A DNA stretch of 24,000 bases from Dechloromonas aromatica (nom. nud.) (GTDB taxonomy: Bacteria > Pseudomonadota > Gammaproteobacteria > Burkholderiales > Rhodocyclaceae), in the NCBI GenBank assembly GCA_004555545.1, contig SFHR01000032.1, forward strand, positions 16,161 to 40,160, in the 5' to 3' direction. Made by a program: the position numbers and the translations under genes. This document shows, one piece after another, positions 228 through 23,692 of the stretch (position 1 is the stretch's first letter; the number at the start of each line of letters is the position of its first letter). Under the pieces are notes generated by a model. The model was not told where the DNA came from and ran no database searches. It worked only from the letters and a program-made list of their open reading frames with translations.

Positions 228-275
228 TTTTCCACGAGAATTCTCAAAAATTTTTTGATAAATCTCGTGGAAAAA
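228..275. repeat. CCACGAG palindromic element, full copy 1 (candidate bidirectional terminator)
   Basis: Arms TTTTCCACGAGA (core 232-238) and TCTCGTGGAAAA (core 264-270) around an AAAAATTTTTT centre. Lies between tRNA-Leu and bamD. Confidence 0.9.
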
Positions 276-357
276 TTTTTTATATTTTTTATTTATAAAA
301 TCTTGCGAATTTCAGTAATTCAGTAAATATTTTTTCTTTTTATTTTTTTGATTCTTT

Positions 358-1200
358 ATGTTGATAAAAAAATTTCCATTTTCCGCATTTTCCGCATTTT
401 CCGCATTTTCCTTTTCATTTTTATTTTTATTTTCCTTGCTTTTTGCGTTATTTTTATCCGGATGTTCATCAACGCAAGAAAGGGACGAAACTGTTGGCTG
501 GTCGGCGCAAAAAATTTACTCTACTGCAAAATCTGCTGCCTCTGAAGGACTTTACGAAAAATCCGCAAAATATTTAGAACGCTTGGAAGCCCGTTATCCT
601 TACGGACGCTACGCTCAACAAGCACAATTAGAATTATGTTATGTCTGGTGGAAAGCCGATGAAATCGCTAACGCTTTGGCGGCTTGTGATCGCTTTTTGA
701 AATTACACCCAAATCACCCAAACGCTGACTACATCTATTATTTGAAAGGTCTGATAAATTTCAAAGAAGATTTAGGTTTTGTTGCCTATTTAGGTTCATC
801 TGACCCAAGTGAACGTGATTCTGACGCTTCCAAAGAAGCATTGAATTCCTTTGCCGAATTATTACGGCGTTATCCAAATAGCAAATATGCTCCGGACGCT
901 CAAAAGCGGGTTTTATATCTGGTGAATGCGTTGGCTCAAAAGGAAATCCACGTAGCCAAATATTACATCAAACGCCAAGCATTTTTAGCGGCGGCAAATC
1001 GGGCTCAACAAGTTCTCAAAGATTTCCCGAACACGCCTTCTAACGAGGAAGCGTTGTATATAATGGTTGTTGCTTACAAAGAATTAGGTTTGAGGCAACT
1101 TCACGACGACACCTTGCGAATAATGCAGCAAAATTTTCCGGATTCAAAATATTTCAAAGAAGGATTGTTTGCCGATAAAAAATGGTGGCATCTTTGGTAA
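358..1200 (+). CDS. bamD: outer membrane protein assembly factor BamD (lipoprotein)
   Basis: 280-aa ORF with signal peptide and lipobox LFLSGC. TPR-like body with BamD/YfiO-type motifs (RYPYGRYAQQAQLELCY, YPNSKYAPDA). Confidence 0.9.
   Translation: MLIKKFPFSAFSAFSAFSFSFLFLFSLLFALFLSGCSSTQERDETVGWSAQKIYSTAKSAASEGLYEKSAKYLERLEARYPYGRYAQQAQLELCYVWWKADEIANALAACDRFLKLHPNHPNADYIYYLKGLINFKEDLGFVAYLGSSDPSERDSDASKEALNSFAELLRRYPNSKYAPDAQKRVLYLVNALAQKEIHVAKYYIKRQAFLAAANRAQQVLKDFPNTPSNEEALYIMVVAYKELGLRQLHDDTLRIMQQNFPDSKYFKEGLFADKKWWHLW
378..411. repeat. 9-bp tandem repeat ATTTTCCGC x ~3.8 inside the bamD signal peptide
   Basis: Perfect units at 378-386, 387-395 and 396-404 plus a partial unit. Encodes FSAFSAFSAFS in the signal-peptide h-region. 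Confidence 0.9.
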
Positions 1201-1201
1201 A

Positions 1202-1237
1202 GTAAAAAGCAAAAAGCAAAAAGCAAAAAGTAAAAAA
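1202..1237. repeat. 7-bp tandem repeat G(C/T)AAAAA x5
   Basis: Read directly; starts immediately after the bamD stop. Confidence 0.85.
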
Positions 1238-1250
1238 GCACAAAAACAAA

Positions 1251-1298
1251 TTTCCACGAGAAATCTCAAAAAATTTTTGGGAAATCTCGTGGAAAAAA
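1251..1298. repeat. CCACGAG palindromic element, full copy 2
   Basis: Cores at 1254-1260 and 1286-1292 with an AAAAAATTTTT centre. Lies between bamD and holA. Confidence 0.9.
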
Positions 1299-1305
1299 TT
1301 CTATT

Positions 1306-1335
1306 CAAATCAAGTCAAATCAAATCAAATCAAAA
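1306..1335. repeat. 5-bp tandem repeat CAAAT x6
   Basis: Read directly; ends 3 nt before the holA ATG. Confidence 0.85.
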
Positions 1336-1337
1336 TT

Positions 1338-2393: not shown

Positions 2394-2394
2394 A

Positions 2395-2439
2395 TTTTCC
2401 ACGAGATTTTCAAAAATTTTTTTAGAAATCTCGTGGAAA
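2395..2439. repeat. CCACGAG palindromic element, full copy 3
   Basis: Cores at 2399-2405 and 2430-2436. Begins 2 nt after the holA stop, in the convergent holA/miaA gap. Confidence 0.9.
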
Positions 2440-2446
2440 TTTGTTT

Positions 2447-3454: not shown

Positions 3455-3480
3455 ATTTTTTGAATTGTTGATTCTTAGAT

Positions 3481-3548
3481 TTTTTCCACGAGATTTTGAT
3501 AAAAATTTTTAAAAATTTTTAAAAATTTTTTGCTAATTCTCGTGGAAA
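3481..3548. repeat. CCACGAG palindromic element, full copy 4, with expanded spacer
   Basis: Cores at 3486-3492 and 3539-3545. The spacer holds a perfect (AAAAATTTTT)x3 at 3501-3530. Confidence 0.9.
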
Positions 3549-3551
3549 TTT

Positions 3552-3600
3552 TTATTACTTTTATTACTTTTATTACTTTTATTATTTTTATTATTTTTTA
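3552..3600. repeat. 9-bp tandem repeat TTATTACTT x3, then 2 degenerate units
   Basis: Read directly; overlaps the stop codon of the response-regulator gene. Confidence 0.85.
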
Positions 3601-4739
3601 TTTTTTGAATTTGTTGGCAAATTTAAGTTTTCTGCTTCTATGGTGTTATTGGTTGATAATATCAAAGCCCGTTGGATTACATTTTCCAACTCGCGGACAT
3701 TACCTTTCCAGTCATAATTTATCAGAGCTTGTTGAGCCGCCTCCGATAACGCCATTCCTTTTCGGTGAAATTGTTCGCTATGCTTGGCTAAAAGTTGTTT
3801 GGCAATCGTTACAATGTCTTCTTTGCGTTCGCGTAACGCCGGAATTTTGATGGGAAATACGTTAAGCCGGTAATACAAATCTTCACGGAAAATTCCTTGT
3901 TTGACTGCTTCTAACATATCTCGGTTGGAAGTTGCAATCACGCGAACATTTAATTCTATGGTTTTTTTCCCGCCGAGCCGTTCTACTTCTTTTTCTTGTA
4001 GAATTCGCAATAATTTGGATTGCAAATTTAACGGCATTTCGGTGATTTCATCTAATAATAACGTGCCATCTTGAGCTTGTTCAAATTTTCCCGGAGATGC
4101 AGTATTCGCACCGGTGAAAGCACCTTTTTCGTAACCAAAAAGTGTAGCTTCCAATAGATTTTCCGGAATCGCCGCACAATTTATAGCCACAAAAGGTTTA
4201 TCGCTACGATTTGAATTTTGGTGAATAAATTTGGCGACTACTTCTTTGCCGGTTCCGGATTCGCCGGTTAATAGCACGGTTGCATCAGTTTGAGCTACAC
4301 GTAAAGCCATAGCGAACATATTTTTGCTCACCGGAGAAATATCAACAATATTGACATTATTGCCGCCGATTTGGAAATTTTGCAACTCATATTTTTTGAT
4401 GATATCTAACAAAGATTTTGGCTCAAAAGGTTTGAGTAGAAATTCACAAGCACCGCTTTTCATAGCTTCTACGGCTTTATCAACTTCAGCATAAGCGGTC
4501 ATCAAAACAACCGGCAGATGCGGTAATTTTTCGCGGATTTTCTTGAGCAGCGTTAAGCCGTCCATAGGCATCATCCGCACATCGCTGATAACAATAGAAA
4601 AAGCAACTTCGGAAAGAATTTTCAAAGCCGCTTTACCGCCATCAACGGCGTGAAATTCTCGGTTAGATAATTCCAAAGTATCACAAATGGCTTCCCGCAA
4701 ACAAGGATCGTCCTCAACAATTAAGATTGGTAAGTTCAT
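3591..4739 (-). CDS. sigma54-dependent response regulator (REC + AAA+), no C-terminal HTH domain
   Basis: 382 aa. REC domain (DDP...SDVRMMPMDG...KP). AAA+ with Walker A GESGTGKE, GAFTGA motif and Walker B LLLDEI. The protein ends about 25 aa after GNVRELEN. Confidence 0.85.
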   Translation of the reverse strand: MNLPILIVEDDPCLREAICDTLELSNREFHAVDGGKAALKILSEVAFSIVISDVRMMPMDGLTLLKKIREKLPHLPVVLMTAYAEVDKAVEAMKSGACEFLLKPFEPKSLLDIIKKYELQNFQIGGNNVNIVDISPVSKNMFAMALRVAQTDATVLLTGESGTGKEVVAKFIHQNSNRSDKPFVAINCAAIPENLLEATLFGYEKGAFTGANTASPGKFEQAQDGTLLLDEITEMPLNLQSKLLRILQEKEVERLGGKKTIELNVRVIATSNRDMLEAVKQGIFREDLYYRLNVFPIKIPALRERKEDIVTIAKQLLAKHSEQFHRKGMALSEAAQQALINYDWKGNVRELENVIQRALILSTNNTIEAENLNLPTNSKNKK

Positions 4740-4773
4740 AATTTTTATTTCATATTTTTTTGTATATTCTTAT

Positions 4774-5910: not shown

Positions 5911-5920
5911 TTGAATTTTT

Positions 5921-7166
<1,246 letters not shown>

Positions 7167-7185
7167 TTTTGTTGAAAAATTTTAC

Positions 7186-7443
7186 TTATAAATCTGCTTT
7201 TTGCAAAATTTCATACGCTTTACATTTCAGTGCCTGAGAAATTTTGAGTAAATTCAGCAGAGTTAAATTACTTTCGCCGCGTTCAATTTTTCCCATATGA
7301 CCTCTATCAACGCCACTTTCGAACGCTAATTGTTCTTGAGAAAATTTAGCAGTTAAATTTTTACGGACATCTTTTATTGCTTCACCTAATTTTTTTAAGT
7401 CGCCGTTTTCATCAATTTTTGCGGAAATTCTGATTTTTGCCAT
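7186..7443 (-). CDS. XRE-family helix-turn-helix transcriptional regulator
   Basis: 85 aa from MAKIRISAKI. HTH_3-like core FSQEQLAFESGVDRGHMGKIERGESNLTLLNLLKISQAL. ATG at 7443 preferred over the upstream ORF-track start. Confidence 0.75.
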   Translation of the reverse strand: MAKIRISAKIDENGDLKKLGEAIKDVRKNLTAKFSQEQLAFESGVDRGHMGKIERGESNLTLLNLLKISQALKCKAYEILQKADL

Positions 7444-7478
7444 AATGCGAGAAGTATTAAACAAAACAGCAAATATAA

Positions 7479-7525
7479 CCACTTTATTTATTTCCACTTT
7501 ATTTATTACTCTTTTTTTGTATAAT
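7479..7525 (+). promoter_or_regulatory. direct-repeat candidate operator plus extended -10 in the XRE / Sel1 divergent region
   Basis: CCACTTTATTTATT occurs twice (7479-7492, 7494-7507), followed by TGTATAAT at 7518-7525. The same TGTATAATGCAAA block forms the tRNA-Phe promoter -10. Confidence 0.4.
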
Positions 7526-7583
7526 GCAAAATATTTTCACAAACAATATTTTTAACTTAAATAACAAAAAAGGAGTTTTTATT

Positions 7584-7838
7584 ATGGCAATGGGATTATT
7601 TACAGCTATAATTGACGGTGTAAGAGCCGGTTTGAATTATGATATCGCAAGAGATGTGAGATGGGCAAAAGAAGGTGATGTAAATGCCCAAGTCAGATTA
7701 GCTTATAGATTTTTAAGGGGTGATGGGCAGTTCCAAGATAATGATGAAGCATTAAAATGGTTTAGAAGAGCTGCTCATAATGGTTCTGAACTTGCAAAAC
7801 AAGAATTAGAAAAACTGAATTCTATGGGAATTTATTAA
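7584..7838 (+). CDS. small Sel1-like repeat (SLR) protein
   Basis: 84 aa from the ATG at 7584, preceded by AGGAG (7571-7575). AKEGDVNAQVRLAYRFLRGDGQFQDNDEALKWFRRAAHNGSELA fits the Sel1 repeat consensus. Confidence 0.7.
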   Translation: MAMGLFTAIIDGVRAGLNYDIARDVRWAKEGDVNAQVRLAYRFLRGDGQFQDNDEALKWFRRAAHNGSELAKQELEKLNSMGIY

Positions 7839-7853
7839 AAATATTGAAAAGCA

Positions 7854-7899
7854 TTTTCCACGAGATTTCTAAAAAATTTTTTAGATTTCTCGTGGAAAA
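7854..7899. repeat. CCACGAG palindromic element, full copy 7
   Basis: Cores at 7858-7864 and 7889-7895. In the convergent gap between the Sel1 gene and the gmhA-like gene. Confidence 0.9.
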
Positions 7900-7928
7900 T
7901 TTTTATTTTTTTTATTTTTATGTTTTGT

Positions 7929-8531
7929 TTATTTATTTTCCAAACCTAATAATTTTGCGTCTATTCCATCGCACAAACAATGCAGAGTTAGCAAATGGAT
8001 TTCTTGGATTCTCGCTGTGCGGTCGTGAGGAACACAAATATTTATATCACTTTCTTTAAGTTTATTGGCGATTTCTCCTCCGCCTTTGCCTGTTAGTGCT
8101 ACAACGTGCATATCGCTGTCGTGAGCGGCTTTGATGGCTTGTAAAACATTTGAGGAATTACCAGAAGTAGAAATTGCTAACAAAACATCGCCAACATTTC
8201 CTAATGCACGAACTTGCTTGGCGAACACTTGCGAAAAATCATAATCATTGCCGACCGCCGTCAAAATGGATGTATCGGTGCTTAAAGCAACGGCGGCAAG
8301 TTCTTGGCGTTCAATTTCAAAACGTCCGACCAACTCGGCGGCAAAATGTTGAGCGTCGGCAGCGGATCCGCCATTTCCGCAAGATAAAATTTTGCCTCCG
8401 TTCATCAGTGTAGCGACCATTAAATTGATGGCTTCAACGATTTTTGGCATCAAAATTTTTTCGGAATCCATATGGCATTGTATGCTTTGCTGAAATTGTC
8501 CGCTGATGCGTTCGTATAAAAAGTTAAACAT
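7929..8531 (-). CDS. SIS-domain phosphoheptose isomerase family protein (GmhA/DiaA-like)
   Basis: 200 aa. GNGGSAADAQHFAAELVGRF, TAVGNDYDFSQVF and LLAISTSGNSSNV are typical of GmhA/DiaA. The two subfamilies cannot be separated by eye. Confidence 0.8.
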   Translation of the reverse strand: MFNFLYERISGQFQQSIQCHMDSEKILMPKIVEAINLMVATLMNGGKILSCGNGGSAADAQHFAAELVGRFEIERQELAAVALSTDTSILTAVGNDYDFSQVFAKQVRALGNVGDVLLAISTSGNSSNVLQAIKAAHDSDMHVVALTGKGGGEIANKLKESDINICVPHDRTARIQEIHLLTLHCLCDGIDAKLLGLENK

Positions 8532-8538
8532 TTTGCTA

Positions 8539-8555
8539 TTTTTCCACGAGATTTA
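8539..8555. repeat. CCACGAG element, half copy (left arm only)
   Basis: TTTTTCCACGAGATTT (core 8544-8550). The expected right arm is replaced by tandem arrays. Confidence 0.7.
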
Positions 8556-8560
8556 TAATT

Positions 8561-8614
8561 TTTTTTATAGATTTTTATAGATTTTTATATATTTATAAAT
8601 TTATAAATTTATAA
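8561..8614. repeat. compound tandem repeat: 10-bp ATTTTTATAG-like x3, then 8-bp ATTTATAA x3
   Basis: Read directly (8561-8590 and 8591-8614); overlaps the ispG stop codon. Confidence 0.85.
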
Positions 8615-9823: not shown

Positions 9824-9839
9824 AATTGTTTATTTATGT

Positions 9840-11411: not shown

Positions 11412-11456
11412 TTTTCCACGAGATTTCCAAAAATTTTTATAGAATTCTCGTGGAAA
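11412..11456. repeat. CCACGAG palindromic element, full copy 8
   Basis: Cores at 11416-11422 and 11447-11453. It lies in a divergent (promoter-side) intergenic region, so it cannot terminate either neighbour. Confidence 0.9.
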
Positions 11457-11474
11457 TTTTTATTTAATCTACAA

Positions 11475-13506: not shown

Positions 13507-13552
13507 TTTCCACGAGAATAATCCAAAAATTTTTGAACAAATCTCGTGGAAA
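13507..13552. repeat. CCACGAG palindromic element, full copy 9, in-frame inside valS
   Basis: TTTCCACGAGAATAATCCAAAAATTTTTGAACAAATCTCGTGGAAA (cores 13510-13516 and 13543-13549), translated as [16 protein letters not shown]. Confidence 0.9.
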
Positions 13553-14099
13553 GAACACTGGATTTTGTCGGCTTTACAAAATACGATAGCCGAAATTCAT
13601 AAAAATTTTGCAAATTATCGTTTTGATTATATAGCCAAAACTTTTTATGAATTTGTTTGGAATGAGTTTTGTGATTGGTATGTAGAAATTGCCAAAACCA
13701 CTCTGAACGAGCAGATCAACGAATCCGAAAAATTAAAAGTGCGTTTTGTGTTAGTTTATGTTTTGGAAAATATTTTGCGTTTGGCACATCCTTTGATTCC
13801 GTTTATCAGCGAAGAGTTATGGCAAAATGTAGCCGAAATTATTAACGCCAAAAAAACGCCATCAATTATGTTGGCAAAATTTCCGGATTTTGACGCTACG
13901 CTGGTGGATTCAAACGCCGAGCAACAAATCTCAAATTTGAAAACTTTGGTTTCGGCAAGTCGTAATTTACGCACGGAAATGCAAATTTCTCCGTCCGTAA
14001 AAACTCCATTGGTGATAGAAATTGCCAAAAATAATTCGCAAAAACTCGTGGAAATTCAGGAATTTATGCCATATTTGAAATCGTTATCAAAATTATCTG

Positions 14100-14346
<247 letters not shown>

Positions 14347-14423
14347 ATAAAATAAATACAAATATTTAATACAAATATTTGATATAAATACAAATACAAA
14401 AATACAAAGAAAGGAACAACCAT

Positions 14424-14843: not shown

Positions 14844-14871
14844 CAATAACAACTTAACTTAACAAAAAATA

Positions 14872-14917
14872 TTTTCCACGAGATTTTCAAAAGATTTTTT
14901 AGATTTCTCGTGGAAAA
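14872..14917. repeat. CCACGAG palindromic element, full copy 10
   Basis: Cores at 14876-14882 and 14907-14913. Lies between flgC and ilvE. Confidence 0.9.
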
Positions 14918-14930
14918 ATAAAGTAAAAAT

Positions 14931-14970
14931 ATCAAAAAATATCAAAAAATATCACAAAATATCAAAAAAT
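14931..14970. repeat. 10-bp tandem repeat ATCAAAAAAT x4 (A-tracts phased at 10 bp)
   Basis: Read directly, 24 nt upstream of the ilvE ATG. Confidence 0.85.
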
Positions 14971-14993
14971 ATAAAAAAAGGAAATATAAATTT

Positions 14994-15947
14994 ATGGCAA
15001 CTGCAACTGCTCCAACAATGGACGACCGCGATGGCGTTATTTGGTTTAACGGAAAATTAGTAAATTGGCGTGATGTCAAAATTCACGTTTTAACTCATTC
15101 TTTGCATTACGGCTCCAGCGTCTTTGAAGGCGTTCGGGCTTATAAAACCGCAGATAATCGCACGGCAATTTTCCGCTTGAATGATCACACCAAACGCTTG
15201 TTAGATTCCGCAAAAATTATCCAAATGCAAATTCCTTATTCTTTTGACGAGCTCAACAAAGCGCAGTTAGACGTAGTCCGCGAAAATAATTTGGTTGATG
15301 GCTGTTATTTGCGTCCGATTGCTTTTTATGGTTCCGAAAAATTAGGCGTATCTCCAAAAAATTCCAAAGTGCATACTGCGATTGCGGCTTGGTCTTGGGG
15401 AGCATATTTGGGCAAAGAAGCGTTAGAGCGTGGAATTCGCGTAAAAATTTCCAGTTTTAGCCGTTTGCACGTAAACGTTACAATGGTCAAAGCCAAAGCA
15501 TCTGGAAATTATCTAAATTCAATTATGGCAAATAATGAAGTCGTAGATCAAGGTTATGATGAAGCGGTTTTGCTTGACACTGACGGTTATGTAGCCGAAG
15601 GTTCGGGCGAAAATATTTTTATCGTTTCTCGTGGAAAATTATTTACGCCGGATTTGGCGTCGTGCTTGGACGGCATTACGCGTCGCTCTATTATAACTAT
15701 TGCCGAAGAAATGGGCTTGGAAGTAATTTGCAAACGGATAACTCGCGATGAAGTTTATACTGCCGATGAAATGTTTTTCTGTGGAACAGCCGCGGAAATC
15801 ACGCCGATTCGCGAAATTGATAACCGCCAAATCGGAGAAGGCAAACGCGGCGAAATCACTGCAAAATTACAACAACGCTTTTTTGATATAGTTTCCGGCA
15901 AGGAAATCAATAACCCACTTTATAAAGATTGGCTGACGTTTATTTAA
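14994..15947 (+). CDS. ilvE: branched-chain amino acid aminotransferase
   Basis: 317-aa ORF. Class IV aminotransferase motifs (HSLHYGSSVFEGVRAY, KAKASGNYLNS, EGSGENIF, GITR, CGTAAEITPI). Confidence 0.9.
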   Translation: MATATAPTMDDRDGVIWFNGKLVNWRDVKIHVLTHSLHYGSSVFEGVRAYKTADNRTAIFRLNDHTKRLLDSAKIIQMQIPYSFDELNKAQLDVVRENNLVDGCYLRPIAFYGSEKLGVSPKNSKVHTAIAAWSWGAYLGKEALERGIRVKISSFSRLHVNVTMVKAKASGNYLNSIMANNEVVDQGYDEAVLLDTDGYVAEGSGENIFIVSRGKLFTPDLASCLDGITRRSIITIAEEMGLEVICKRITRDEVYTADEMFFCGTAAEITPIREIDNRQIGEGKRGEITAKLQQRFFDIVSGKEINNPLYKDWLTFI

Positions 15948-15948
15948 A

Positions 15949-15988
15949 CAAATAAGCAAATAAGCAAATAAGCAAATAAGCAAATAAA
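15949..15988. repeat. 8-bp tandem repeat CAAATAAG x5
   Basis: Read directly; starts 2 nt after the ilvE stop. Confidence 0.85.
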
Positions 15989-15991
15989 AGA

Positions 15992-16055
15992 AAAACCGCT
16001 AAGACAATAATTTTTATATAAATAATTTTTATATAATTAAGTCATTAGCGGTTTT
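15992..16055 (+). terminator. long hairpin (14-bp stem with one bulge), whose loop holds a 16-bp tandem duplication
   Basis: AAAACCGCTAAGAC (15992-16005) pairs with GTCATTAGCGGTTTT (16041-16055). The loop is AATAATTTTTATATAA x2. A T-rich tail follows after 6 nt. Confidence 0.4.
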
Positions 16056-16071
16056 GATGTATTTTTTAAGA

Positions 16072-16132
16072 GACAACAACTAATCTATTAAGACGAATAA
16101 TCCCAAATTGCCGTTGGGATTATTTTGTTGTC
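16072..16132 (+). terminator. nested hairpin, possibly an intrinsic terminator or small structured RNA
   Basis: Inner stem AATAATCCCAA (16096-16106) / TTGGGATTATT (16114-16124) with loop ATTGCCG. Outer stem GACAACAA (16072-16079) / TTGTTGTC (16125-16132). Confidence 0.4.
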
Positions 16133-16165
16133 CAAAAAGCGAAATGCGATTATACAAAAATAAAA

Positions 16166-16210
16166 TTTCCACGAGAAATCTCAAAAATTTTTTGAAAAAT
16201 CTCGTGGAAA
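16166..16210. repeat. CCACGAG palindromic element, full copy 11
   Basis: Cores at 16169-16175 and 16201-16207. In the convergent gap between ilvE and the Lys-rich protein gene. Confidence 0.9.
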
Positions 16211-16236
16211 TTTTATTTTTTATGATTTTTTATTGT

Positions 16237-16920
16237 TTATTTTTTATCCTTTTCTTTCTCCTTTTTCTCGCGTTTTTTGGGAACTTTTGGCGGAGCTTTC
16301 GGAAGAATTCTGCCATCTAATTCTGCGGTGATTTTTTCGGATTTTGCCCGTAATGCTTGTTCTTCTTTTTCGGCTCGTCGTGCGGCACGTTCGGCTTTTT
16401 TAGCTTCTTTGGCACGTTTTACTTCTTCGGTCTGAATCTTGAATCTGCCGGTTGGAACCAAATTTTGTAATTGCTCCACCAGCGATAAAACTTTGGGAAC
16501 AATTATATCTTTTTGGTCACGATAATAAATATAACGCTGATTTACTGAATCATCATAATTACGCGTCCGCGTTGGTTTTTCAGGCGATTTAATATTCGTA
16601 TTTTCAGCTTTATTTTCATTGCTTTTTTCTGCAATTTCATCATCATTTTTGACGATTTCGGCATCACTTTTTTTGGCTTTTGGTTTTTTGCTTTCTTTGC
16701 TTTCTTTGTTTTCTTTTACATCTTTTGATTTTTCCACGAGATTTTTACTCTTTTTTTTAGGAGTTGTAGAATTTTTCAAAGATGCGAAAACTTTTTCAGT
16801 GACTTCTTCATCGGTCAAATTTTGATTTTGATTTTGATTTTGATTTTGATTCTGATTTTCATCACTTGACAACTCAAATGATAAAGATAAATGCGAGGAA
16901 GTTTTTTTTATTTTTGGCAT
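16237..16920 (-). CDS. hypothetical Lys/Glu-rich low-complexity protein with an (NQ)6 repeat
   Basis: 227-aa ORF, no signal peptide. (NQ)n, KESKESK, a charged helical segment (EEVKRAKEAKKAERAARRAEKEEQALRAK) and a basic tail. No family recognised. Confidence 0.5.
   Translation of the reverse strand: MPKIKKTSSHLSLSFELSSDENQNQNQNQNQNQNLTDEEVTEKVFASLKNSTTPKKKSKNLVEKSKDVKENKESKESKKPKAKKSDAEIVKNDDEIAEKSNENKAENTNIKSPEKPTRTRNYDDSVNQRYIYYRDQKDIIVPKVLSLVEQLQNLVPTGRFKIQTEEVKRAKEAKKAERAARRAEKEEQALRAKSEKITAELDGRILPKAPPKVPKKREKKEKEKDKK
16819..16860. repeat. 6-bp tandem repeat ATTTTG x7 (coding, gives NQNQNQ...)
   Basis: Read directly inside the 16237-16920 ORF. Confidence 0.9.
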
Positions 16921-16952
16921 ATACGGAAAATCCTTTGTTTTAAATATTTTGA

Positions 16953-16992
16953 AAATTTTTAAATTTTTAAATTTTTAAATTTTTAAATTTTT
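16953..16992. repeat. 8-bp tandem repeat AAATTTTT x5
   Basis: Perfect units from 16953 to 16992, upstream of the Lys-rich protein gene and downstream of the kinase gene. Confidence 0.9.
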
Positions 16993-17007
16993 GTTTTAGC
17001 TATTATT

Positions 17008-18477
17008 TTACTCCTGCAAATTTATCGGCAAAATAACCGTGAATTTTGTGCCTTTGCCAACTTCGGATTCAACCAAAATATCGCCGCCGTGATGTTGAAT
17101 AATTTCATAAGACAACGATAAACCCAAGCCTGTGCCTTTGCCAACCGCTTTGGTGGTATAAAACGGCTCAAAAACGTGTTTGATAACATTTGGCGGCATT
17201 CCTTTGCCGTTATCGCTGATGCTAACTTCCACTTGATTTGGATTGCTTTCCGAAAGTTTGGTTTCCAAAATTATTTTGCCCGGCGTAGTTTCTATGGCTT
17301 GACAAGCATTAACCAAAATATTCATAAAAACTTGGCTCAATTTTGCCGGTACGCATCTGATGCGTGGCAAACTTTGATCGTAACGACGTTCTAACTCGGC
17401 TTTATATTTTATCTCGTGCCAAACAACATTGACCGTACCGTCCAAAATTTGATTGAGATCGCTATCTTCCCACTCGCCTTTATCAACGTGCAAAAATACT
17501 TTCATATCTTGAACTATACGTTTAACACGATTTAAGCCATCGGTCGATTCGTTTAGCAAATCTAAAATATCGTCTTTCAAAAAATCATAATCAATATCTT
17601 CTTTGAAAGCCCGTACAATTTCTTTGAAAGTTTCTGAATTTGTATTGCCGATGTTGTCTTCATAAAGCTTGATAAAATTCAACAAATGTTCAACATATTG
17701 TTTAAGCGTTCCCAAGTTAGAATTGACAAAACCAACTGGATTATTGATTTCGTGAGCCACTCCGGCGGCAAGTTGCCCAATTGCCGACATTTTTTCAGAT
17801 TGCATCAAGCGTTTTCTGGTGCTATCAACTTCTGACAATGCTTCGGAAAGTTCTTTGGTGCGTTCTTCCACGCGTTTTTCCAAATTTGCGTTCAAATCGG
17901 ATAATTCCGCTTGAGCTTTGAGTAATTGAGCATTGCGTCTAGCCATTTGATTATAAAGTTCTTCCATTGCTTTTAATAAAGCGTGAGAAGCCAAATTTTT
18001 ATCTTCACAACTAATATGGCGTGGTTTATTTTCAAATTCAGCGAAAAAATTTGCCATTTCTTGATCAGATCCAAGAATATGAAAAGATAGCCAAACCGTG
18101 ATGTAATGGGCTAATTCTTCCAAAATGGAATTTTTATTTTTGCCAGAATCATTTGTATATTCTTCTCGCATAGAAGCAACATATTTCATAAAGTAATTAT
18201 GCTGCCGAAAATGTTGGCGTAAATGTTCGGCATAAAGTTTGTTGGTTTCTTGTTTATTTTTATACAGCAGCATAATTTTTTCTTCGTCGGAGAAATGCAC
18301 TTGGGCGTATTCTTCAAGTTTGTCTAATAACAAAAATAATTCTTTTTCGGTGATTTGCTGTTTATTTACCAATACTCCGATCAAAGCGTTAAGCAAATTT
18401 ACTAATTGCTGATGTTCTTTATCAACAATATCAATGCCGGTGTTGTAATAATTATCCCATTGAAAAGCTTTCAACAT
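17008..18477 (-). CDS. cytoplasmic sensor histidine kinase with an N-terminal hemerythrin-like domain
   Basis: 489 aa, no TM segment. Hemerythrin ligand motifs are present (DKEH, HFSDE = HxxxE, HLRQH = HxxxH, HILGSD = HxxxxD). Then a coiled coil, H-box GVAHEINNP, and N/G1/G2 boxes (NILVNA, DNGKGM, GTGLGL). Confidence 0.85.
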   Translation of the reverse strand: MLKAFQWDNYYNTGIDIVDKEHQQLVNLLNALIGVLVNKQQITEKELFLLLDKLEEYAQVHFSDEEKIMLLYKNKQETNKLYAEHLRQHFRQHNYFMKYVASMREEYTNDSGKNKNSILEELAHYITVWLSFHILGSDQEMANFFAEFENKPRHISCEDKNLASHALLKAMEELYNQMARRNAQLLKAQAELSDLNANLEKRVEERTKELSEALSEVDSTRKRLMQSEKMSAIGQLAAGVAHEINNPVGFVNSNLGTLKQYVEHLLNFIKLYEDNIGNTNSETFKEIVRAFKEDIDYDFLKDDILDLLNESTDGLNRVKRIVQDMKVFLHVDKGEWEDSDLNQILDGTVNVVWHEIKYKAELERRYDQSLPRIRCVPAKLSQVFMNILVNACQAIETTPGKIILETKLSESNPNQVEVSISDNGKGMPPNVIKHVFEPFYTTKAVGKGTGLGLSLSYEIIQHHGGDILVESEVGKGTKFTVILPINLQE

Positions 18478-18498
18478 AATAAGTCACATTTCTTTTGC

Positions 18499-18553
18499 TT
18501 TATTTTTATTTTTATTTTTATTTTTATTTTTATTTTTATTTTTATTTTTATTT
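18499..18553. repeat. 6-bp tandem repeat TTTTTA x9
   Basis: An A every 6 nt from 18502 to 18550, in the kinase/hflX divergent region. Confidence 0.9.
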
Positions 18554-18618
18554 AATTTTTGGTTTTAATTTTGTTTTGCTCTTTAAATTATATTTTTTAT
18601 GCTTATAAAAAATTTTTA

Positions 18619-18636
18619 AAATCTCGCGGAAAATAT
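18619..18636. repeat. CCACGAG element, degenerate half copy (right arm, CTCGCGG)
   Basis: AAAATCTCGCGGAAAAT (core 18623-18629), with one mismatch in the core and no left arm upstream. Confidence 0.55.
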
Positions 18637-18659
18637 TTTTTTTGTAGTTTTATATTTTT

Positions 18660-19952
18660 ATGTCTGCAAACAATTTTTTATCAGAACAAGTTTTCACTAA
18701 AAATAAACATAATTTACATAATTCTAACGCAAATTTTCCACGAGAAATCGCTTTAATTTTGCAGGTTGATTTTGATAGCGACAAAGTTCAAGCCGCTTTA
18801 AAATTACAAGAATTACAATTACTCACAGAATCCGCCGGAGCAGAAGTAGCCGAAAAAATTATCGTAAATCGCAGCGTGGCAAATCCAAAATTTTTCATAG
18901 GTTCTGGCAAAGTTGAGGAAATCAAAATTTTAATCGCTGCCAAAAATATAAATTTGTTAATCGTAAATCACAATTTATCACCGGCTCAAGAACGCAATTT
19001 GGAGCGAGAATTAAAAATTCGCGTGATTGATAGAAATGCTTTAATTTTAGATATTTTTGCTCAACGTGCCGCCACTGCGGACGGGCGTTTGCAAGTAGAA
19101 TTAGCACAATTACAGCATTTATCAACTCGTTTAGTTCGCGGTTGGACGCATTTGGAACGTCAAAAAGGCGGAATCGGCTTACGTGGGCCCGGCGAAAGTC
19201 AGTTGGAAACGGATAGACGTTTGTTAAATCAGCGAATTATATTTTTGAAACAAAAATTAGCCAAATTATCAAAACAACGGAGAACGCAGAATTTTTCCAG
19301 ATTTGATAGCAATAAAAATTTTGCAATTTTAAATGTTGCATTTATCGGCTACACAAATACCGGAAAATCAACGCTTTTCAACGCTCTGACGAAAGCGAAT
19401 GTTTATTCGGCAAATCAATTATTTGCCACACTTGATACAACGGCTCGGCGTTTATGGTTGGCAGATTCGCAAAGTCAGGCAATTGTTGCTGATACAGTTG
19501 GTTTTATACGTGATTTGCCACATAGTTTGATTAACGCATTCCACGCCACTTTGGAGGCAACTTGTTATGCAGATGTTTTGTTGCACGTGATAGATTTTTC
19601 TTCAGCAATGAAAGATGCAGAAATCAAAGCGGTCAATGAAGTTTTACAAGAAATAAATAATGATATTGGCAGTCAAATTCCGCCACAGATTTTGGTTTTC
19701 AACAAAATAGATTTGGCGATAAGCAATGAAAGAGATTTGCAAGAAAAGTTGTCACAGAATTTTGAAAATATTCAAAACGTAAATTTAGACGCTTTGGATC
19801 CGTTAATTCCAAACGTTTATGTGAGTGCTAAACAAAAATTAGGGTTAGAAAATCTGAAATTATTGTTAGCAAAATTTGCCTTACAGAAAATGCGTAAAAA
19901 TAATAAAAATTCAGAAAATGATGAAAATGCAGATTTTCCACGAGAAATCTAA
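18660..19952 (+). CDS. hflX: GTPase HflX
   Basis: 430-aa ORF with the HflX N-terminal domain (FAQRAATADGRLQVELAQLQH, GPGESQLETDRR). G1 GYTNTGKST, G3 DTVGF, G4 NKID. Confidence 0.9.
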   Translation: MSANNFLSEQVFTKNKHNLHNSNANFPREIALILQVDFDSDKVQAALKLQELQLLTESAGAEVAEKIIVNRSVANPKFFIGSGKVEEIKILIAAKNINLLIVNHNLSPAQERNLERELKIRVIDRNALILDIFAQRAATADGRLQVELAQLQHLSTRLVRGWTHLERQKGGIGLRGPGESQLETDRRLLNQRIIFLKQKLAKLSKQRRTQNFSRFDSNKNFAILNVAFIGYTNTGKSTLFNALTKANVYSANQLFATLDTTARRLWLADSQSQAIVADTVGFIRDLPHSLINAFHATLEATCYADVLLHVIDFSSAMKDAEIKAVNEVLQEINNDIGSQIPPQILVFNKIDLAISNERDLQEKLSQNFENIQNVNLDALDPLIPNVYVSAKQKLGLENLKLLLAKFALQKMRKNNKNSENDENADFPREI

Positions 19953-19980
19953 AAATTTTTTTGAAAATCTCGTGGAAAAA
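19934..19980. repeat. CCACGAG palindromic element, full copy 12, containing the hflX stop codon
   Basis: Cores at 19938-19944 and 19969-19975. The hflX frame reads the left arm as FPREI, then TAA. Confidence 0.9.
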
Positions 19981-20056
19981 ATTTAAAAATTTAAAAATTT
20001 AAAAATTTAAGAATTTAAAAAATTTTTAAAAATTTTTAAAAATTTTTAAAAATTTG
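19976..20056. repeat. compound tandem repeat: AAAAATTT (8 bp) x5, then AAAAATTTTT (10 bp) x3
   Basis: Read directly; abuts the -35 of the tRNA-Phe promoter, in a UP-element-like position. Confidence 0.85.
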
Positions 20057-20057
20057 C

Positions 20058-20085
20058 TTGACATTTATTTTTTTTAATGTATAAT
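20058..20085 (+). promoter_or_regulatory. consensus sigma70 promoter for tRNA-Phe
   Basis: TTGACA (20058-20063), 16-bp spacer, TATAAT (20080-20085) preceded by TG. The tRNA starts at 20103. Confidence 0.65.
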
Positions 20086-20102
20086 GCAAACTTTCTTTCA
20101 AA

Positions 20103-20178
20103 GGCCAATTAGCTCAGTTGGTAGAGCGGAGGACTGAAAATCCTTGTGTCCGTGGTTCGATTCCGCGATTGGCCACCA
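20103..20178 (+). tRNA. tRNA-Phe (anticodon GAA), encoded CCA
   Basis: Manual cloverleaf of 76 nt: acceptor GGCCAAT/ATTGGCC, D-arm GCTC-AGTTGGTA-GAGC, anticodon loop CTGAAAA, T-arm CGTGG-TTCGATT-CCGCG. Confidence 0.92.
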
Positions 20179-20204
20179 AATTTCTTCTGTTAAAGATAAT
20201 ATGT

Positions 20205-20241
20205 GCATTTACTAATATTTTTAAGTAAATGCTTTTTTTTT
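20205..20241 (+). terminator. Rho-independent terminator after tRNA-Phe
   Basis: Stem GCATTTACT (20205-20213) / AGTAAATGC (20224-20232) followed by a T9 run. Confidence 0.65.
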
Positions 20242-20249
20242 ATATTTTT

Positions 20250-20792
20250 ATGTCTGCGAATAACCCAACTAATAACACAATAATTAACGAAACTAACGAC
20301 AATGTTAGGTTAATAAAAAAATACCCAAATCGGCGTTTGTATGATACAAAAAATAGTGCTTATATAACTATTACAGAAATAAAAAATTTGGTGCTTACTT
20401 GCGAACCTTTTATAGTTTGTGATGCAAAAACAAATGAAGATTTGACGCGTAATATTTTGTTGCAAATAATATTAGAAGAAGAAAGCGGTTCAATGCCATT
20501 ATTTTCAAAAGAAATATTAAATAGTTTCATTCGTTTTTACGGCAGCACTATGCAAGGAATGTTTGTAAAGTATTTGGAAAATACTATGAATACTTTTTTA
20601 GATTTTCAAAGTAAATTACAAGGCGAAAATACTACGTTACAAAATGAATTTTGGACGCAATTTTTTACTATGCAAAAGTCATCATTACAAAATTTAATGA
20701 ATAGTTATATTGAGCAATATCAAACTATGTTTAGTTCATTAAAAACATTTGCGACTTTGCCGAATTTGGGTGAATTAGATAAACAAAAATAG
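20250..20792 (+). CDS. phaR: polyhydroxyalkanoate synthesis repressor PhaR
   Basis: RLIKKYPNRRLYDT...DAKTNEDLTRNILLQIILEEE is the PhaR N-terminal DNA-binding signature. ATG at 20250 preferred, because the ORF-track start overlaps the terminator. Confidence 0.85.
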   Translation: MSANNPTNNTIINETNDNVRLIKKYPNRRLYDTKNSAYITITEIKNLVLTCEPFIVCDAKTNEDLTRNILLQIILEEESGSMPLFSKEILNSFIRFYGSTMQGMFVKYLENTMNTFLDFQSKLQGENTTLQNEFWTQFFTMQKSSLQNLMNSYIEQYQTMFSSLKTFATLPNLGELDKQK

Positions 20793-20850
20793 TTATAATA
20801 AAAATATAATAATAATAATAATATAATTAAGTAAAAATAAATAAAATATT

Positions 20851-21537
20851 ATGAGTATAAGTGTAGCAAAAAATTTAGCATTGTTTGATTTAGATAATAC
20901 TTTATTATCATCAGATTCAGATTACTTATGGGGCGAATTTGCTTGTGAAAATAATATAGTTAATGCAACAGAATTCCGCAAAAAAAATAATGAATATATG
21001 CAACAATATCGGCAAGGAGTTTTGGATGCCGATGAGTTTGTGGCATTTCAGTTAAATGTTTTGACAAAATTTCCACGAGAAACCTTAAATAATTTTTATA
21101 AAGAATACTTTGATAACAAAATCAAACCGGTTATATTACCAAAAGGAATTGATTTGGTTCAGCGGCATTTACAAAATGGCGATTTGTGTGCGTTAGTTAG
21201 TGCAACAAATACTTTTATTACTGCTCCGATTGCCCGTTATTTTAAAATACCTTATTTGATTTGCACTACTGCCGAACAAAATATGGAAAACGGAAATTAT
21301 ACCGGCGAATGTATAGGTAAAAAATCATTTAGAGAAGGCAAAATTTTTCGCGTAGAACAATTTTTACAAAACTACGGATTATTTTGGGGAAGTTTTGAAA
21401 AAACATACTTTTATAGCGATTCATTTAATGATTTGCCATTGTTAAATAAAGTATCAAATCCAGTAGCAGTTAATCCAGATGCAAAACTATTAGAAGCGGC
21501 TCAAAAAAATAATTGGACTATTTTAGATTTGCGTTAA
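20851..21537 (+). CDS. HAD-IB family hydrolase (SerB-like phosphatase family)
   Basis: 228 aa. Motif I FDLDNTLL, motif II VSATN, and a C-terminal YSDSFNDLPLL aspartate motif. Confidence 0.8.
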   Translation: MSISVAKNLALFDLDNTLLSSDSDYLWGEFACENNIVNATEFRKKNNEYMQQYRQGVLDADEFVAFQLNVLTKFPRETLNNFYKEYFDNKIKPVILPKGIDLVQRHLQNGDLCALVSATNTFITAPIARYFKIPYLICTTAEQNMENGNYTGECIGKKSFREGKIFRVEQFLQNYGLFWGSFEKTYFYSDSFNDLPLLNKVSNPVAVNPDAKLLEAAQKNNWTILDLR

Positions 21538-21582
21538 TCTTATAGAATTTAGTATTTATCAAAAATAACAAAATTTAAGCAA

Positions 21583-21614
21583 AAATAATTAAATAATTAA
21601 ATAATTAAATAATA
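21583..21614. repeat. 8-bp tandem repeat AAATAATT x4
   Basis: Read directly, immediately upstream of the OMP gene start. Confidence 0.85.
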
Positions 21615-21619
21615 AAATA

Positions 21620-22897
21620 ATGATGAAAAAACACTTTATTTATACAATATTTTTGCTTTGTAATTTTGTTATTTTTATTTTTAATTTACAAAATTTATCA
21701 GCAGAAGAAAATGTAGAAAATATTTATACACAAGCATTGCAAGAAATAAAAAATAATGATTTACTACAAGCACAAATTTTATTAAATAAAGTTATAAAAC
21801 TTGATGCTAATCACGCCGGAGCAAAATTAGATTTGGCAATTTTACAATGCAAAATCGGCAATAAATTTCAAAGCGAAATATTATTAAAAGAATTAGAAAC
21901 AAAATATATATTAAGGCAAAATATAAAAAGTATTATTCAACAAATTCGCAATAGTTCTTGCAATGAAAATGATGCTAACAATAATAACAAAAATATCAAA
22001 AATGCATTTTGGTTAAAGTTGGCAGTTGGTTATGATACAAACATAAATCAAGGCACAACAAACCCTTTATTTGAAGCCAGTGACGGCAATCAAACTATCG
22101 TATTTATATTAGCTGATAATTTTGTAAAACACGGCGGAGTAAATTTTAATGTAAATGTCGGTTTTATGCACAAGATTAGTGATAGAAATGACAAAATTTT
22201 CGTTAAATTAAATACCAAAAATCATAATCACTATACTTATTTTAATACGGCAACTGGACAAATTTTATATCAAATGCCGGAATTTTATCTCGGTGCAAAT
22301 GATAATATAAAAATTACTTCTAATTTTGCTTATAATGTTATAAATTTGGACGCCAAACCATATTTATCACAGCAAAAATTTTCGCTTGGACTAACTCCGT
22401 TTTATGATAATAAAAATAATAATTTTCAGACAACTTTTGGCTTTAATTTAACGCGAAATACTTATAGAAATCTCAAAGCATATAATGCAAAAGTTTATGA
22501 ATTAAAAACAGATTTGAAGTATTCACAAAATAATTATTTGACAACACTAACGGCTGGAATTTTGTTTGATAAAGCAGAAAATAACCGTCCCGGCGGAAAT
22601 AAAAAAGGATTTTTTATTGCTGCAAATCATAAATACTCGCCACATAATAAATGGTTATTTGAAGTTTTTGCTCATTATCAAAAATGGAATTCTTCGCGTA
22701 TATATTTAGCGAATTTTATTCCACGCAAACGCAATCAAAAACTTTTTGCTTATGGCTTTACTGCTGATTATAGTGTGAATAAAAATAATAGTTTTGGTAT
22801 TGAATTTATGAATTTTAATAATCAAGAAAATATAAGTTTATTTGAGTATAAAAATAGATCATTACAATTATATTGGCAATATTATTTTGAAAAATAA
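21620..22897 (+). CDS. outer-membrane protein: signal peptide, TPR-like N-domain and ~14-strand beta-barrel (Slam/DUF560-like or YaiO-like)
   Basis: 425 aa. Hydrophobic signal sequence, a TPR-like helical ~100 aa (YTQALQEIKNNDLLQAQILLNKVIKLDANHAGAKLDLAILQCKIG), then about 14 alternating amphipathic aromatic-rich strands ending ...LQLYWQYYFEK. Confidence 0.55.
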   Translation: MMKKHFIYTIFLLCNFVIFIFNLQNLSAEENVENIYTQALQEIKNNDLLQAQILLNKVIKLDANHAGAKLDLAILQCKIGNKFQSEILLKELETKYILRQNIKSIIQQIRNSSCNENDANNNNKNIKNAFWLKLAVGYDTNINQGTTNPLFEASDGNQTIVFILADNFVKHGGVNFNVNVGFMHKISDRNDKIFVKLNTKNHNHYTYFNTATGQILYQMPEFYLGANDNIKITSNFAYNVINLDAKPYLSQQKFSLGLTPFYDNKNNNFQTTFGFNLTRNTYRNLKAYNAKVYELKTDLKYSQNNYLTTLTAGILFDKAENNRPGGNKKGFFIAANHKYSPHNKWLFEVFAHYQKWNSSRIYLANFIPRKRNQKLFAYGFTADYSVNKNNSFGIEFMNFNNQENISLFEYKNRSLQLYWQYYFEK

Positions 22898-22911
22898 AAA
22901 ATACTATAAAT

Positions 22912-23562
22912 TTACGGCAATCTTCCGGCTTCTATCATTTTATATTTGAGTTGATAAGGCGTAATCCAAATTACTTTATCATCAAAATTTTGGGTTTCTG
23001 CTTGGCTAACAAAATAAGTATCATTATTACTATTTTCTTGCTCATTACTATTAGCAGAATTTTTGCCACGTGCATTATGTAAAACAATCACGGAAGCCAC
23101 TTCTATGGCTAATTTATCATTTTTATTATTACTATCTGCCAAAATGTCTGCTAATGATTTTCTTACACTATCATTACCTTCACCGGTTGCCAAATTAAAA
23201 CTACAAAGTTCATCATCTTCCAAAGGTTTAGAAAACGCCACATTTACATAATAACTAATTGCATTTCCAAAGCGATCTGTTTTTGGAACTCCTAATAAAA
23301 CGCTTGGCAAAATTCCGTGCGTCAAATTACAATTTTCGCTTTGCAAATTATTTTCATTTTCTGCCGGACAAGGCAATCTCCCGTGAGTAATCGCAAAGCC
23401 GTATAAACTTTCTCTAATAGTATTTAATAAAATTTCGTCTTGTTGAGTTTTGTTATTTTTATAAATTGAATTTACTAATATCAAACTACTTCCTAACAAC
23501 AAGGAAATAACGCTTAAACTAATAACCAATTCTATTAAAGAAAAACCATTTTTTTTATACAT
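22912..23562 (-). CDS. prepilin-type N-terminal cleavage/methylation domain protein (type IV minor pilin or pseudopilin-like)
   Basis: MYKKNG|FSLIELVISLSVISLLL: class III signal with G-1, F+1 and E+5. 216 aa, with Cys pair in GRLPCPAENENNLQSENC. Confidence 0.8.
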   Translation of the reverse strand: MYKKNGFSLIELVISLSVISLLLGSSLILVNSIYKNNKTQQDEILLNTIRESLYGFAITHGRLPCPAENENNLQSENCNLTHGILPSVLLGVPKTDRFGNAISYYVNVAFSKPLEDDELCSFNLATGEGNDSVRKSLADILADSNNKNDKLAIEVASVIVLHNARGKNSANSNEQENSNNDTYFVSQAETQNFDDKVIWITPYQLKYKMIEAGRLP

Positions 23563-23563
23563 A

Positions 23564-23635
23564 TTTTTATTTTACTTTTTATTTTACTTTTTATTTTACT
23601 TTTTATTTTACTTTTTATTTTACTTTTTATTTTAC
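23564..23635. repeat. 12-bp tandem repeat TTTTTATTTTAC x6
   Basis: A C every 12 nt (23575 ... 23635), starting 2 nt upstream of the prepilin start codon. Confidence 0.9.
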
Positions 23636-23645
23636 TTCGCAACAA

Positions 23646-23692
23646 TTTTCCACGAGATTTCCAAAAAATTTTTTAGATTTCTCGTGGAAAAA
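23646..23692. repeat. CCACGAG palindromic element, full copy 13
   Basis: Cores at 23650-23656 and 23681-23687. Lies between the TonB-like gene stop and the prepilin gene. Confidence 0.9.

Follow-up and report, generated by a model that had tools for sequence, protein, structure and literature searches.

The 24-kb window analysed here, the whole 24,000-nucleotide stretch of contig SFHR01000032.1, carries an inverted repeat of about 46 bp at almost all of its transcription-unit boundaries, and the question raised by this locus is what the repeat is made of and what maintains it. A first-pass annotation, made from the letters of the window alone, had described a palindromic family that fitted a bidirectional intrinsic terminator. 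We find instead that the repeated entity is a ~30-nt asymmetric, non-palindromic unit, present singly inside genes and as overlapping inverted pairs between them. We consider it somewhat probable (roughly 0.55) that this unit is a third, independent DNA uptake signal, of the type represented by the uptake signal sequences (USS) of Pasteurellaceae and the DNA uptake sequences (DUS) of Neisseriaceae, and that its pairs also act as terminators.

Abundance and anatomy of the repeated unit

The heptamer CCACGAG occurs 17 times in the window and its complement CTCGTGG 16 times, exactly as counted in the first-pass annotation, and dinucleotide-preserving shuffles gave a mean of 0.58 and a maximum of 3 for the total of 33. 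When up to one mismatch was allowed, TTCCACGAGA had 35 matches against 0.97 expected. The cores resolve into 13 inverted pairs and seven unpaired single units. All 13 full copies first reported were recovered in place with their 12-nt arms; their division into eleven intergenic and two genic copies holds for those in obg (6120) and valS (13506), but the copy at 19934 has its left arm within hflX. The list of two half copies fared less well: one is a single unit (core at 8544), the other, given as 18619, is a one-mismatch site at 18622-18631, and six singles with intact cores were missing from it. The unpaired cores lie at 8544, 16734, 18738 and 21073 on the forward strand and at 14045, 15628 and 23747 on the reverse strand, all but the first being additions to that list. 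These four forward and three reverse singles are interleaved, showing no polar strand skew within 24 kb, and their mixed orientation rules out a Chi- or KOPS-like polar signal. CRISPR-like and tandem-array readings were also discarded, the copies being dispersed at ~1.3-kb intervals without a common spacer architecture.

The G+C content of the window ranges from 26 to 41%, and its ValS shares 65-68% identity with the enzymes of Azonexus, Dechloromonas and Methylophilaceae, which indicates that the source is a low-GC betaproteobacterium that is not near the Neisseriaceae by ValS. Relatives were taken from public assemblies and comprise nine strains with 98-99% nucleotide identity (L134, L136-L143), a sister species (L012, with a ValS 92% identical to that of the window) and a third lineage (L152, with a pilin 85% identical and 27% G+C); a metagenome scan with a specific pattern added 120 more stretches, nearly all from one co-assembly. 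The 451 kb of related DNA used for counting are an ascertained sample, most loci having been found via a pair, and 54 kb picked without reference to the motif provided an unselected set for density and spacing. The unselected set holds 1.35 cores and 0.78 sites per kb, so that the frequency in the window, which the first pass had wished to see checked genome-wide, is no local artefact. Sites in this set are spaced more evenly than random (coefficient of variation 0.50 vs 0.91), and none of 5000 simulations was as even. The 451 kb contain 217 pairs, nine of them in coding sequence, and 160 singles (73 forward and 87 reverse), of which 97 lie in coding sequence; by our estimate, which scales the shuffle rate to 451 kb, the singles are about 14-fold in excess of the ~11 expected.

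The same core is present in all of these relatives and further stretches, among them the sister species and the third lineage, which makes at least two further species-level lineages, and the family is therefore genome-wide and lineage-wide. It is absent from a GC-rich relative (L153/L154), and no copy was found in the IMG/VR viral contigs searched. No Rfam family matched the elements: only two tRNAs passed the threshold, and the elements themselves scored at the level of hairpin noise, reaching 27 bits where the gathering score is 211. A literature search for the motif turned up nothing relevant. A loose pattern run against the genome collection was set aside, since chance matches in unrelated GC-rich genomes appeared among the matches listed.

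Alignment of all half-sites revealed conservation extending well past the 12-mer core, and the unit can be written as 5'-(A-rich flank)-TTTTCCACGAGA-WW-TCYC-AAAAA-TTTTT(T)-G. Its length of ~30 nt follows from the singles inside genes, which keep the whole unit without a second arm: among coding singles with the full 12-mer, the T tract is present in 51 of 54 against a background of 22%, with no residual second arm. Because A5T5 is its own reverse complement, two inverted units overlap on it to give the 46-bp pair. Core-to-core spacing changes in steps, with 187 pairs at 30-33 nt, 22 at 40-44, five at 52-55 and one each at 63 and 78; this is due to 10-bp A5T5 slippage, polymorphic between strains, which produces larger versions of about 57, 67 and 77 bp. 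The 3x10-bp spacer expansion noticed at first pass is a case in point, the copy at 3482 carrying (AAAAATTTTT)x3.

The pairs are not true palindromes, as they had first been called: the two bases after GAGA match between arms in 18% of cases, when 50% would be expected. In about 200 pairs the inner bases read AA..AA in 68, the reverse complement TT..TT in 54, and are truly palindromic in 24. The asymmetry resides at +8/+9 after the core (for instance 7866-7867 and 7885-7886) and gives every hairpin an internal loop of 2x2 size, made of A·A or U·U. Where genes run in tandem, the sense strand bears the AA form in 40 cases vs 16. G-U pairing was rejected as its cause, given that the hairpins, which average about -20 kcal/mol on either strand, are no stabler on the transcribed one (-19.9 vs -20.3 kcal/mol, p = 0.24); that it serves to evade RNase III or to prevent cruciforms would be a guess. 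The outer nine bases of every unit, TTTTCCACG (window 228-236), match the DnaA-box consensus TTWTNCACA in eight of nine positions, a resemblance that we take to be probably a coincidence.

Units inside genes and the question of mobility

Single, non-hairpin units account for ~40% of sites, and most of them lie within conserved protein-coding sequence; this class was overlooked in the first-pass annotation, and its members were made by substitution. The coding strand carries CTCGTGG in 68 of 94 coding singles (antisense) and the sense form in 26, and a single reading frame, encoding (K)KNxQNLVEN, is used by 39 of the 94. At the protein level, Leu-Val-Glu is found 89 times vs 46 for the reversed Glu-Val-Leu (EVL), and 43 of these 89 are encoded by the rare-codon string CTCGTGGAA (CTC GTG GAA), for which codon usage predicts 0.8. 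Similarly, Phe-His-Glu occurs 22 times vs three for its reverse (EHF), with 15 of the 22 written TTC CAC GAG. Roughly two-fold enrichment of encoded tripeptides together with a frame bias is also described for USS and DUS (PMC2817400).

Comparison with homologues points to how these copies arose. IlvE has VSRGK where its homologue has VNRGK in an otherwise conserved block, and in comparison with solved homologues ThrRS shows KSRGN against RTRRG and ProC shows NFENLVEKA against NLRELFIKA, in all three without insertion at the core; GluRS has just two 1-aa gaps near the site. In NqrC the core reads NLVE against QIVE, again without insertion at the core, with an 8-aa insertion just upstream. Since distant homologues of IlvE, ThrRS, ProC and GluRS reveal no insertion, the alignments indicate that the in-gene single units arose by substitution and not by insertion. 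The inverted pair in valS (13506-13553) fills a length-variable loop, where it encodes 16 residues, and the codon of an invariant Ser falls within its right arm.

The singles within window genes conform to this description. One on the reverse strand of valS (14023-14055) encodes KLVEIQ and is kept in the sister species, and another in ilvE (15606-15638, reverse) encodes GENIFIVSRGK, which aligns without gaps with GENFFLVNRGK of Burkholderia. On the forward strand, the unit in a 227-aa open reading frame (ORF) (16730-16762) is antisense to the gene and encodes KNLVEK, that in hflX (18734-18766) encodes NFPREI, and that in the HAD-family histidinol-phosphatase gene (21069-21101) encodes KFPRET, its orthologous site being kept in the third lineage (L152). 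A single imperfect unit, CTCCACGAGA, lies on the reverse strand at the 3' end of the tonB-like ORF (23725-23757). Elsewhere, single units number two in xseA, the gene for the exonuclease VII large subunit (L106, 1438-2715), and one in the ComEC gene (L103); for DUS and USS, an enrichment in genome-maintenance genes is reported.

These genic copies bear directly on a different origin for the family, as a non-autonomous mobile palindrome of the REP/REPIN, miniature inverted-repeat transposable element (MITE) or RPE kind, which would have spread by copy-and-paste, at times in frame within genes, and later been domesticated as a terminator. REP/BIME and MITEs (Correia/NEMIS, ERIC, RPE) are likewise short, abundant, palindromic gene-end repeats that can terminate or stabilise mRNA, and RPE can sit in frame in genes, a position shared by the present copies in obg and valS. 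The stereotyped 46-bp consensus speaks for such an origin, its asymmetry being fixed in both orientations as if from a single master copy, as do the degenerate inverted pair in obg (6120-6177), which encodes 20 residues in a stretch where 13 aa are inserted compared with E. coli ObgE, the presence of elements at a cassette and at synteny breakpoints, and the breaking of short-read contigs at the repeats. We nevertheless regard it as unlikely, if the strongest of the rivals. The 97 coding singles are hard to account for by transposition, the five examined in conserved proteins having no insertion at the core, and the rare-codon and tripeptide data argue for substitution. No excess of direct repeats that would mark target-site duplications was seen at any boundary offset, and the arms stay invariant while the remainder drifts.

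The first-pass annotation had proposed presence/absence polymorphism in related strains and a RAYT gene in the genome as signs of mobility. Neither was seen: the window sites are common to the nine strains at 98-99% identity, apart from one element-bounded cassette, and an E. coli RayT query found no homologue in ~0.65 Mb (653 kb) of family DNA, much of it overlapping strain copies and together part of the genome. The absence of a transposase or RAYT from the window itself, as first reported, was confirmed. The differences between strains at window sites consist of arm point mutations, an 8-bp duplication and A5T5 copy number. Thus, the family differs from REP/REPIN-RAYT systems in its 97 singles and nine pairs in coding sequence and in having no GTAG head, and from MITEs in its common sites, and from both in the substitution-made half-units within conserved coding sequence, with neither target-site duplications nor insertion polymorphism.

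The cassette, of 700 bp (7166-7866), contains a repressor-like gene (HTH_3) and an ORF with Sel1 repeats, with an inverted pair at its left edge (7110-7168) and another at its right edge (7854-7899), the latter at the convergent Sel1/gmhA junction. It is present in the window, in L141 and partly in L142, which has a different gene order beyond it; L134, L140 and L143 are without it and carry one hybrid element in its place. Against the sister species, synteny upstream of valS is lost precisely at the left boundary of the pair between the divergent purD and valS (11412-11457), a pair identical there in 45 of 46 nt; in that species the gene upstream of valS has its stop codon abutting a truncated left arm. 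Many short-read contigs start or end within an element (L012, L013, L016, L025, L035, L039, L074, L152), and the 1.5-9-kb pieces in which assemblies of the lineage come can be ascribed to the repeat breaking contigs.

Inverted pairs at gene ends

In the 451 kb, pairs lie at a median of 26 nt after stop codons. Among the gaps of 40 bp or more in this ascertained sample, a pair is found in 95% of the convergent, 63% of the tandem and 45% of the divergent ones; shorter gaps have none. The window elements fold stably on both strands (-17 to -34 kcal/mol, z-scores of -3.6 to -9.7). A simple terminator scan gave no excess of conventional terminators (16 vs 22 expected) and none at a gene end, which leaves the pairs as the sole terminator candidates. 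T makes up 5.1 of the 10 nt beyond the stem on the sense side, and 6.7 on the antisense side. With AAAA as the last bases of the stem, the U run is contiguous only if the flanks pair. Gene-end placement, two-strand hairpins and the lack of other terminators bear out the position and structure on which the first-pass proposal of a bidirectional terminator was based, termination itself being what we infer from them; its further remark that termination alone cannot explain the family agrees with the 45% of divergent gaps that carry a pair. Inverted pairs serving as terminators are documented for both DUS and USS (PMC2817400; bioRxiv 10.1101/2025.10.24.684340).

It could be argued that structure is all that is selected, the pairs being a lineage-specific bidirectional terminator or mRNA-stabilising hairpin whose stem is fixed by a dedicated RNA- or DNA-binding factor, and the singles decayed or incidental. 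The position right after stop codons and the near saturation of convergent junctions would follow naturally, as would the stable two-strand hairpins with T-enriched flanks, the lack of alternative terminators and the 40 to 16 orientation of the asymmetric form with the upstream gene; the conserved 2x2 loop could further be a recognition or anti-RNase III feature. Bidirectional intrinsic terminators also share with the pairs a stable hairpin, an A-rich 5' and T-rich 3' flank and a place between convergent genes. On the other hand, ordinary ones have neither a single invariant 12-nt stem genome-wide nor half-sites in genes or divergent promoter gaps, and the singles here cannot fold yet keep the 30-nt unit, in ~14-fold excess and with rare codons in conserved genes. 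Pairs in 45% of divergent gaps and hairpins no better on the transcribed strand add to this, and the covariation between arms suggested as a check at first pass is lacking: the 12-nt arms never show compensatory change, which implies constraint on sequence rather than on structure. We therefore judge a purely structural role improbable, the least likely of the rivals, and, like mobility, it fails to explain the singles in coding sequence.

Gene calls made here agree with the earlier ones, and the window reads tRNA-Leu, bamD, holA, miaA, the sigma54 response regulator-proB-obg operon, the HTH/Sel1 pair, gmhA, ispG-purD, valS, flgC, ilvE, a histidine kinase gene, hflX, tRNA-Phe, phaR-HAD-unknown, a prepilin-like gene and tonB. 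The first pair, two units with a common A5T5 centre (228-274; -25.7 and -24.2 kcal/mol on the two strands), comes directly after tRNA-Leu and upstream of bamD. It is followed by pairs at the bamD-holA tandem junction (1250-1296), between the convergent holA and miaA (2395-2440, with an 8-bp duplication in the right arm in three sister strains) and downstream of the sigma54 operon (3482-3549, where the repeated centre is x2 in strain L134). Between gmhA and ispG there is a forward single unit, consisting of the 12-mer core and T tract (8540-8572). Further pairs occupy the flgC/ilvE junction (14872-14917) and the gap between the convergent ilvE and 227-aa ORF (16165-16211; -34.1 kcal/mol), while the divergent gap between the histidine kinase gene and hflX has the one-mismatch core TTCCGCGAGA on its reverse strand (18622-18631). 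The pair at 19934-19979, upstream of tRNA-Phe, covers the end of hflX, its left arm (19934-19952) supplying the last six codons and the stop codon (FPREI*). The last pair (23646-23691) lies between the pilin-like and tonB-like genes.

In intact strains valS and flgC are tightly joined, with 13 nt at their junction, which had been singled out at first pass as the one exception among non-operon junctions. The window valS is without 62 bp present in all other strains and in the sister species, and this private deletion (14100-14131, junction 14109-14118, with microhomology at its ends) splits the gene into an 870-aa ORF and a 76-aa ORF with the C-terminal tRNA-binding arm (Pfam Val_tRNA-synt_C, 1.6e-22); it reflects either a mistake of assembly or an essential gene that is truly frameshifted.

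Short AT-rich tandem repeats (periods of 5-12, up to 13 copies) adjoin most intergenic elements and are found at 1199-1250, 3550-3605, 7899-7939, 14925-14979, 15945-15987, 16938-16992, 18499-18577, 19976-20055 and 23564-23637. Their copy number varies between strains, as in the TTTTGTTGA and TTTTTTTA runs of L137-L142. The G+C content falls to 26-28% at 20000-24000 (phaR-HAD-unknown-pilin-tonB), being 32-41% elsewhere, and the 425-aa ORF in this part (21620-22897) has no match in Pfam or NCBIfam.

Resemblance to known uptake signals

The first-pass annotation had dismissed any resemblance to the Neisseria DUS or the Pasteurellaceae USS. It was right as to sequence: TTTTCCACGAGA has no register in common with GCCGTCTGAA or with AAGTGCGGT/ACAAGCGGT (consensus from PMC2817400) and is not a dialect of DUS or USS. 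The genomic behaviour, in contrast, is that of a DUS/USS-type element. The Hin-type USS consists of AAGTGCGGT and two phased T tracts (PMC3458573, PMC2817400), and like the unit described here it joins a G+C-containing core to one-sided A/T tracts in a ~30-nt composite (PMC3458573). Both occur about once per kb in both orientations, both have many coding copies with frame bias and ~two-fold tripeptide enrichment, and the inverted pairs, which are terminators in USS (PMC2817400) and terminator candidates here, take the same position. The present element differs in its unrelated sequence, its betaproteobacterial host, a much larger paired share and pairs that overlap on the self-complementary A5T5 with a fixed 2-nt asymmetry; its uptake bias is a putative one.

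The DUS of Neisseriaceae (AT-GCCGTCTGAA and its dialects) is recognised by the minor pilin ComP. It shares with our element a 12-nt invariant core in a betaproteobacterium, a core common to related species (PMC3630211) and a mostly intergenic location, with inverted repeats after genes in terminator position (bioRxiv 10.1101/2025.10.24.684340). It differs in that our core resembles no DUS dialect and is followed by an extended A/T tract, in that the host ValS is nearest to Rhodocyclales/Azonexaceae-type lineages (65-68%), and in that no ComP-like pilin was identified here. In its layout of core plus T tract the element is thus like the Haemophilus USS, in its invariant 12-nt core and the dominance of terminator pairs it is nearer to the Neisseria DUS, and by sequence it is neither. 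In the literature considered here (PMC2817400, PMC3458573, PMC3630211, bioRxiv 10.1101/2025.10.24.684340), sequence-biased uptake is described only in Neisseriaceae and Pasteurellaceae, which are also the only families covered by a 2025 survey of 177 genomes (bioRxiv 10.1101/2025.10.24.684340), and the USS receptor has so far only been predicted (PMC12616744).

Uptake genes were sought with E. coli K-12 proteins as queries. Homologues were found of ComEC in L103 (Pfam Competence, 6e-42) and of ComEA in L014 (HHH_3, 1e-23), the latter adjoining an element, and none of HofQ, HofB, HofC, YggR or Smf in the same ~0.65 Mb. The window has an orphan prepilin-like gene on its reverse strand (22912-23562; 216 aa with a GFSLIE leader), whose product gives a confident model (pLDDT 87.6) and resembles type IVb pilins only weakly. 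This exact protein recurs in 371 indexed blocks of the public collection, which shows the organism to be very widespread in metagenomes. In the GC-rich relative, the homologue of this pilin closes a sigma54 activator-secretin-TPR-MshE-T2SSF cluster, and in the window the nearby histidine kinase (17008-18477) matches NCBIfam 'T2SS_HK'.

A hyper-abundant maintenance or protein-binding motif has to be considered too, either an analogue of HIP1, maintained through a bias connected with repair or methylation, or a site bound by a protein of the nucleoid or of replication. HIP1-type motifs, cyanobacterial palindromes, display the same properties, namely substitution origin in genes, even spacing and presence on both strands, and the type IV pilus genes not found in ~0.65 Mb of a partial genome would be in keeping with such a role. 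A ~30-nt composite at ~1 per kb far exceeds the length of repair-driven motifs, however, known binding-site regulons have densities orders of magnitude lower, the mixed orientation of the window singles excludes Chi/KOPS-like polarity, and the likeness to the DnaA box breaks down at the final base and takes no account of the invariant GAGA. We hold this explanation to be quite unlikely, second among the rivals.

The uptake-signal reading draws on ~1 copy per kb of an asymmetric unit in both orientations, substitution-made genic copies with rare codons, frame and tripeptide bias, a spacing more even than random, inverted pairs placed where terminators would be, restriction to the lineage and the lack of any trace of transposition, a combination known from published uptake sequences. 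Several observations weigh against it. No type IV pilus, secretin, PilQ/PilB/PilC/PilT or DprA gene was found in the ~0.65 Mb of partial genome, and the single pilin-like gene of the window is not ComP-like. Pairs hold 58% of cores, and two units accumulating independently would not predict their conserved 2-nt asymmetry; this stereotyped interior may point to a master sequence that was copied or to some further constraint. Origin by substitution has an exception in the obg pair, and judging from it some copies may have entered as blocks. The breakpoints of the cassette and of synteny also fit a recombinogenic repeat, the even spacing could reflect one element per gene end, and the organism, whose uptake preference we infer, is known from metagenomes only.

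If the unit is indeed an uptake signal, the uptake machinery would bind and import signal-carrying fragments preferentially, with ComEA and ComEC present and a putative receptor on the outer membrane or a pilus. Recombination of imported conspecific DNA would then act as a molecular drive, fixing mutations that improve the match, and the signal would build up at sites that can bear it, in genes where the reading frame permits and, most of all, in the intergenic spaces. There, two inverted units overlapping on A5T5 would yield the 46-bp element, a ~20-bp hairpin bordered by runs of A and of T, which could have been co-opted as the main bidirectional intrinsic terminator. On the fuller proposal, a third independently evolved uptake system in an uncultured, low-GC lineage of betaproteobacteria outside the Neisseriaceae with a composite ~30-nt signal whose self-complementary tract allows two copies to join into the standard terminator, we would set even odds.

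The motif is a sharp marker for binning contigs of this lineage, explains why short-read assemblies shatter at about 1-kb intervals and would be an obvious addition to DNA constructs if the organism were ever cultured. Were it just a terminator or a selfish repeat, it would still offer a clear example of a genome whose terminators nearly all come from a single sequence. If the uptake reading is true, 'self-recognition' in DNA uptake would evolve repeatedly, the search for receptors would gain a new system, and the molecular-drive model would gain a natural test, with a signal that is long, embedded in AT-rich sequence and easily scored.

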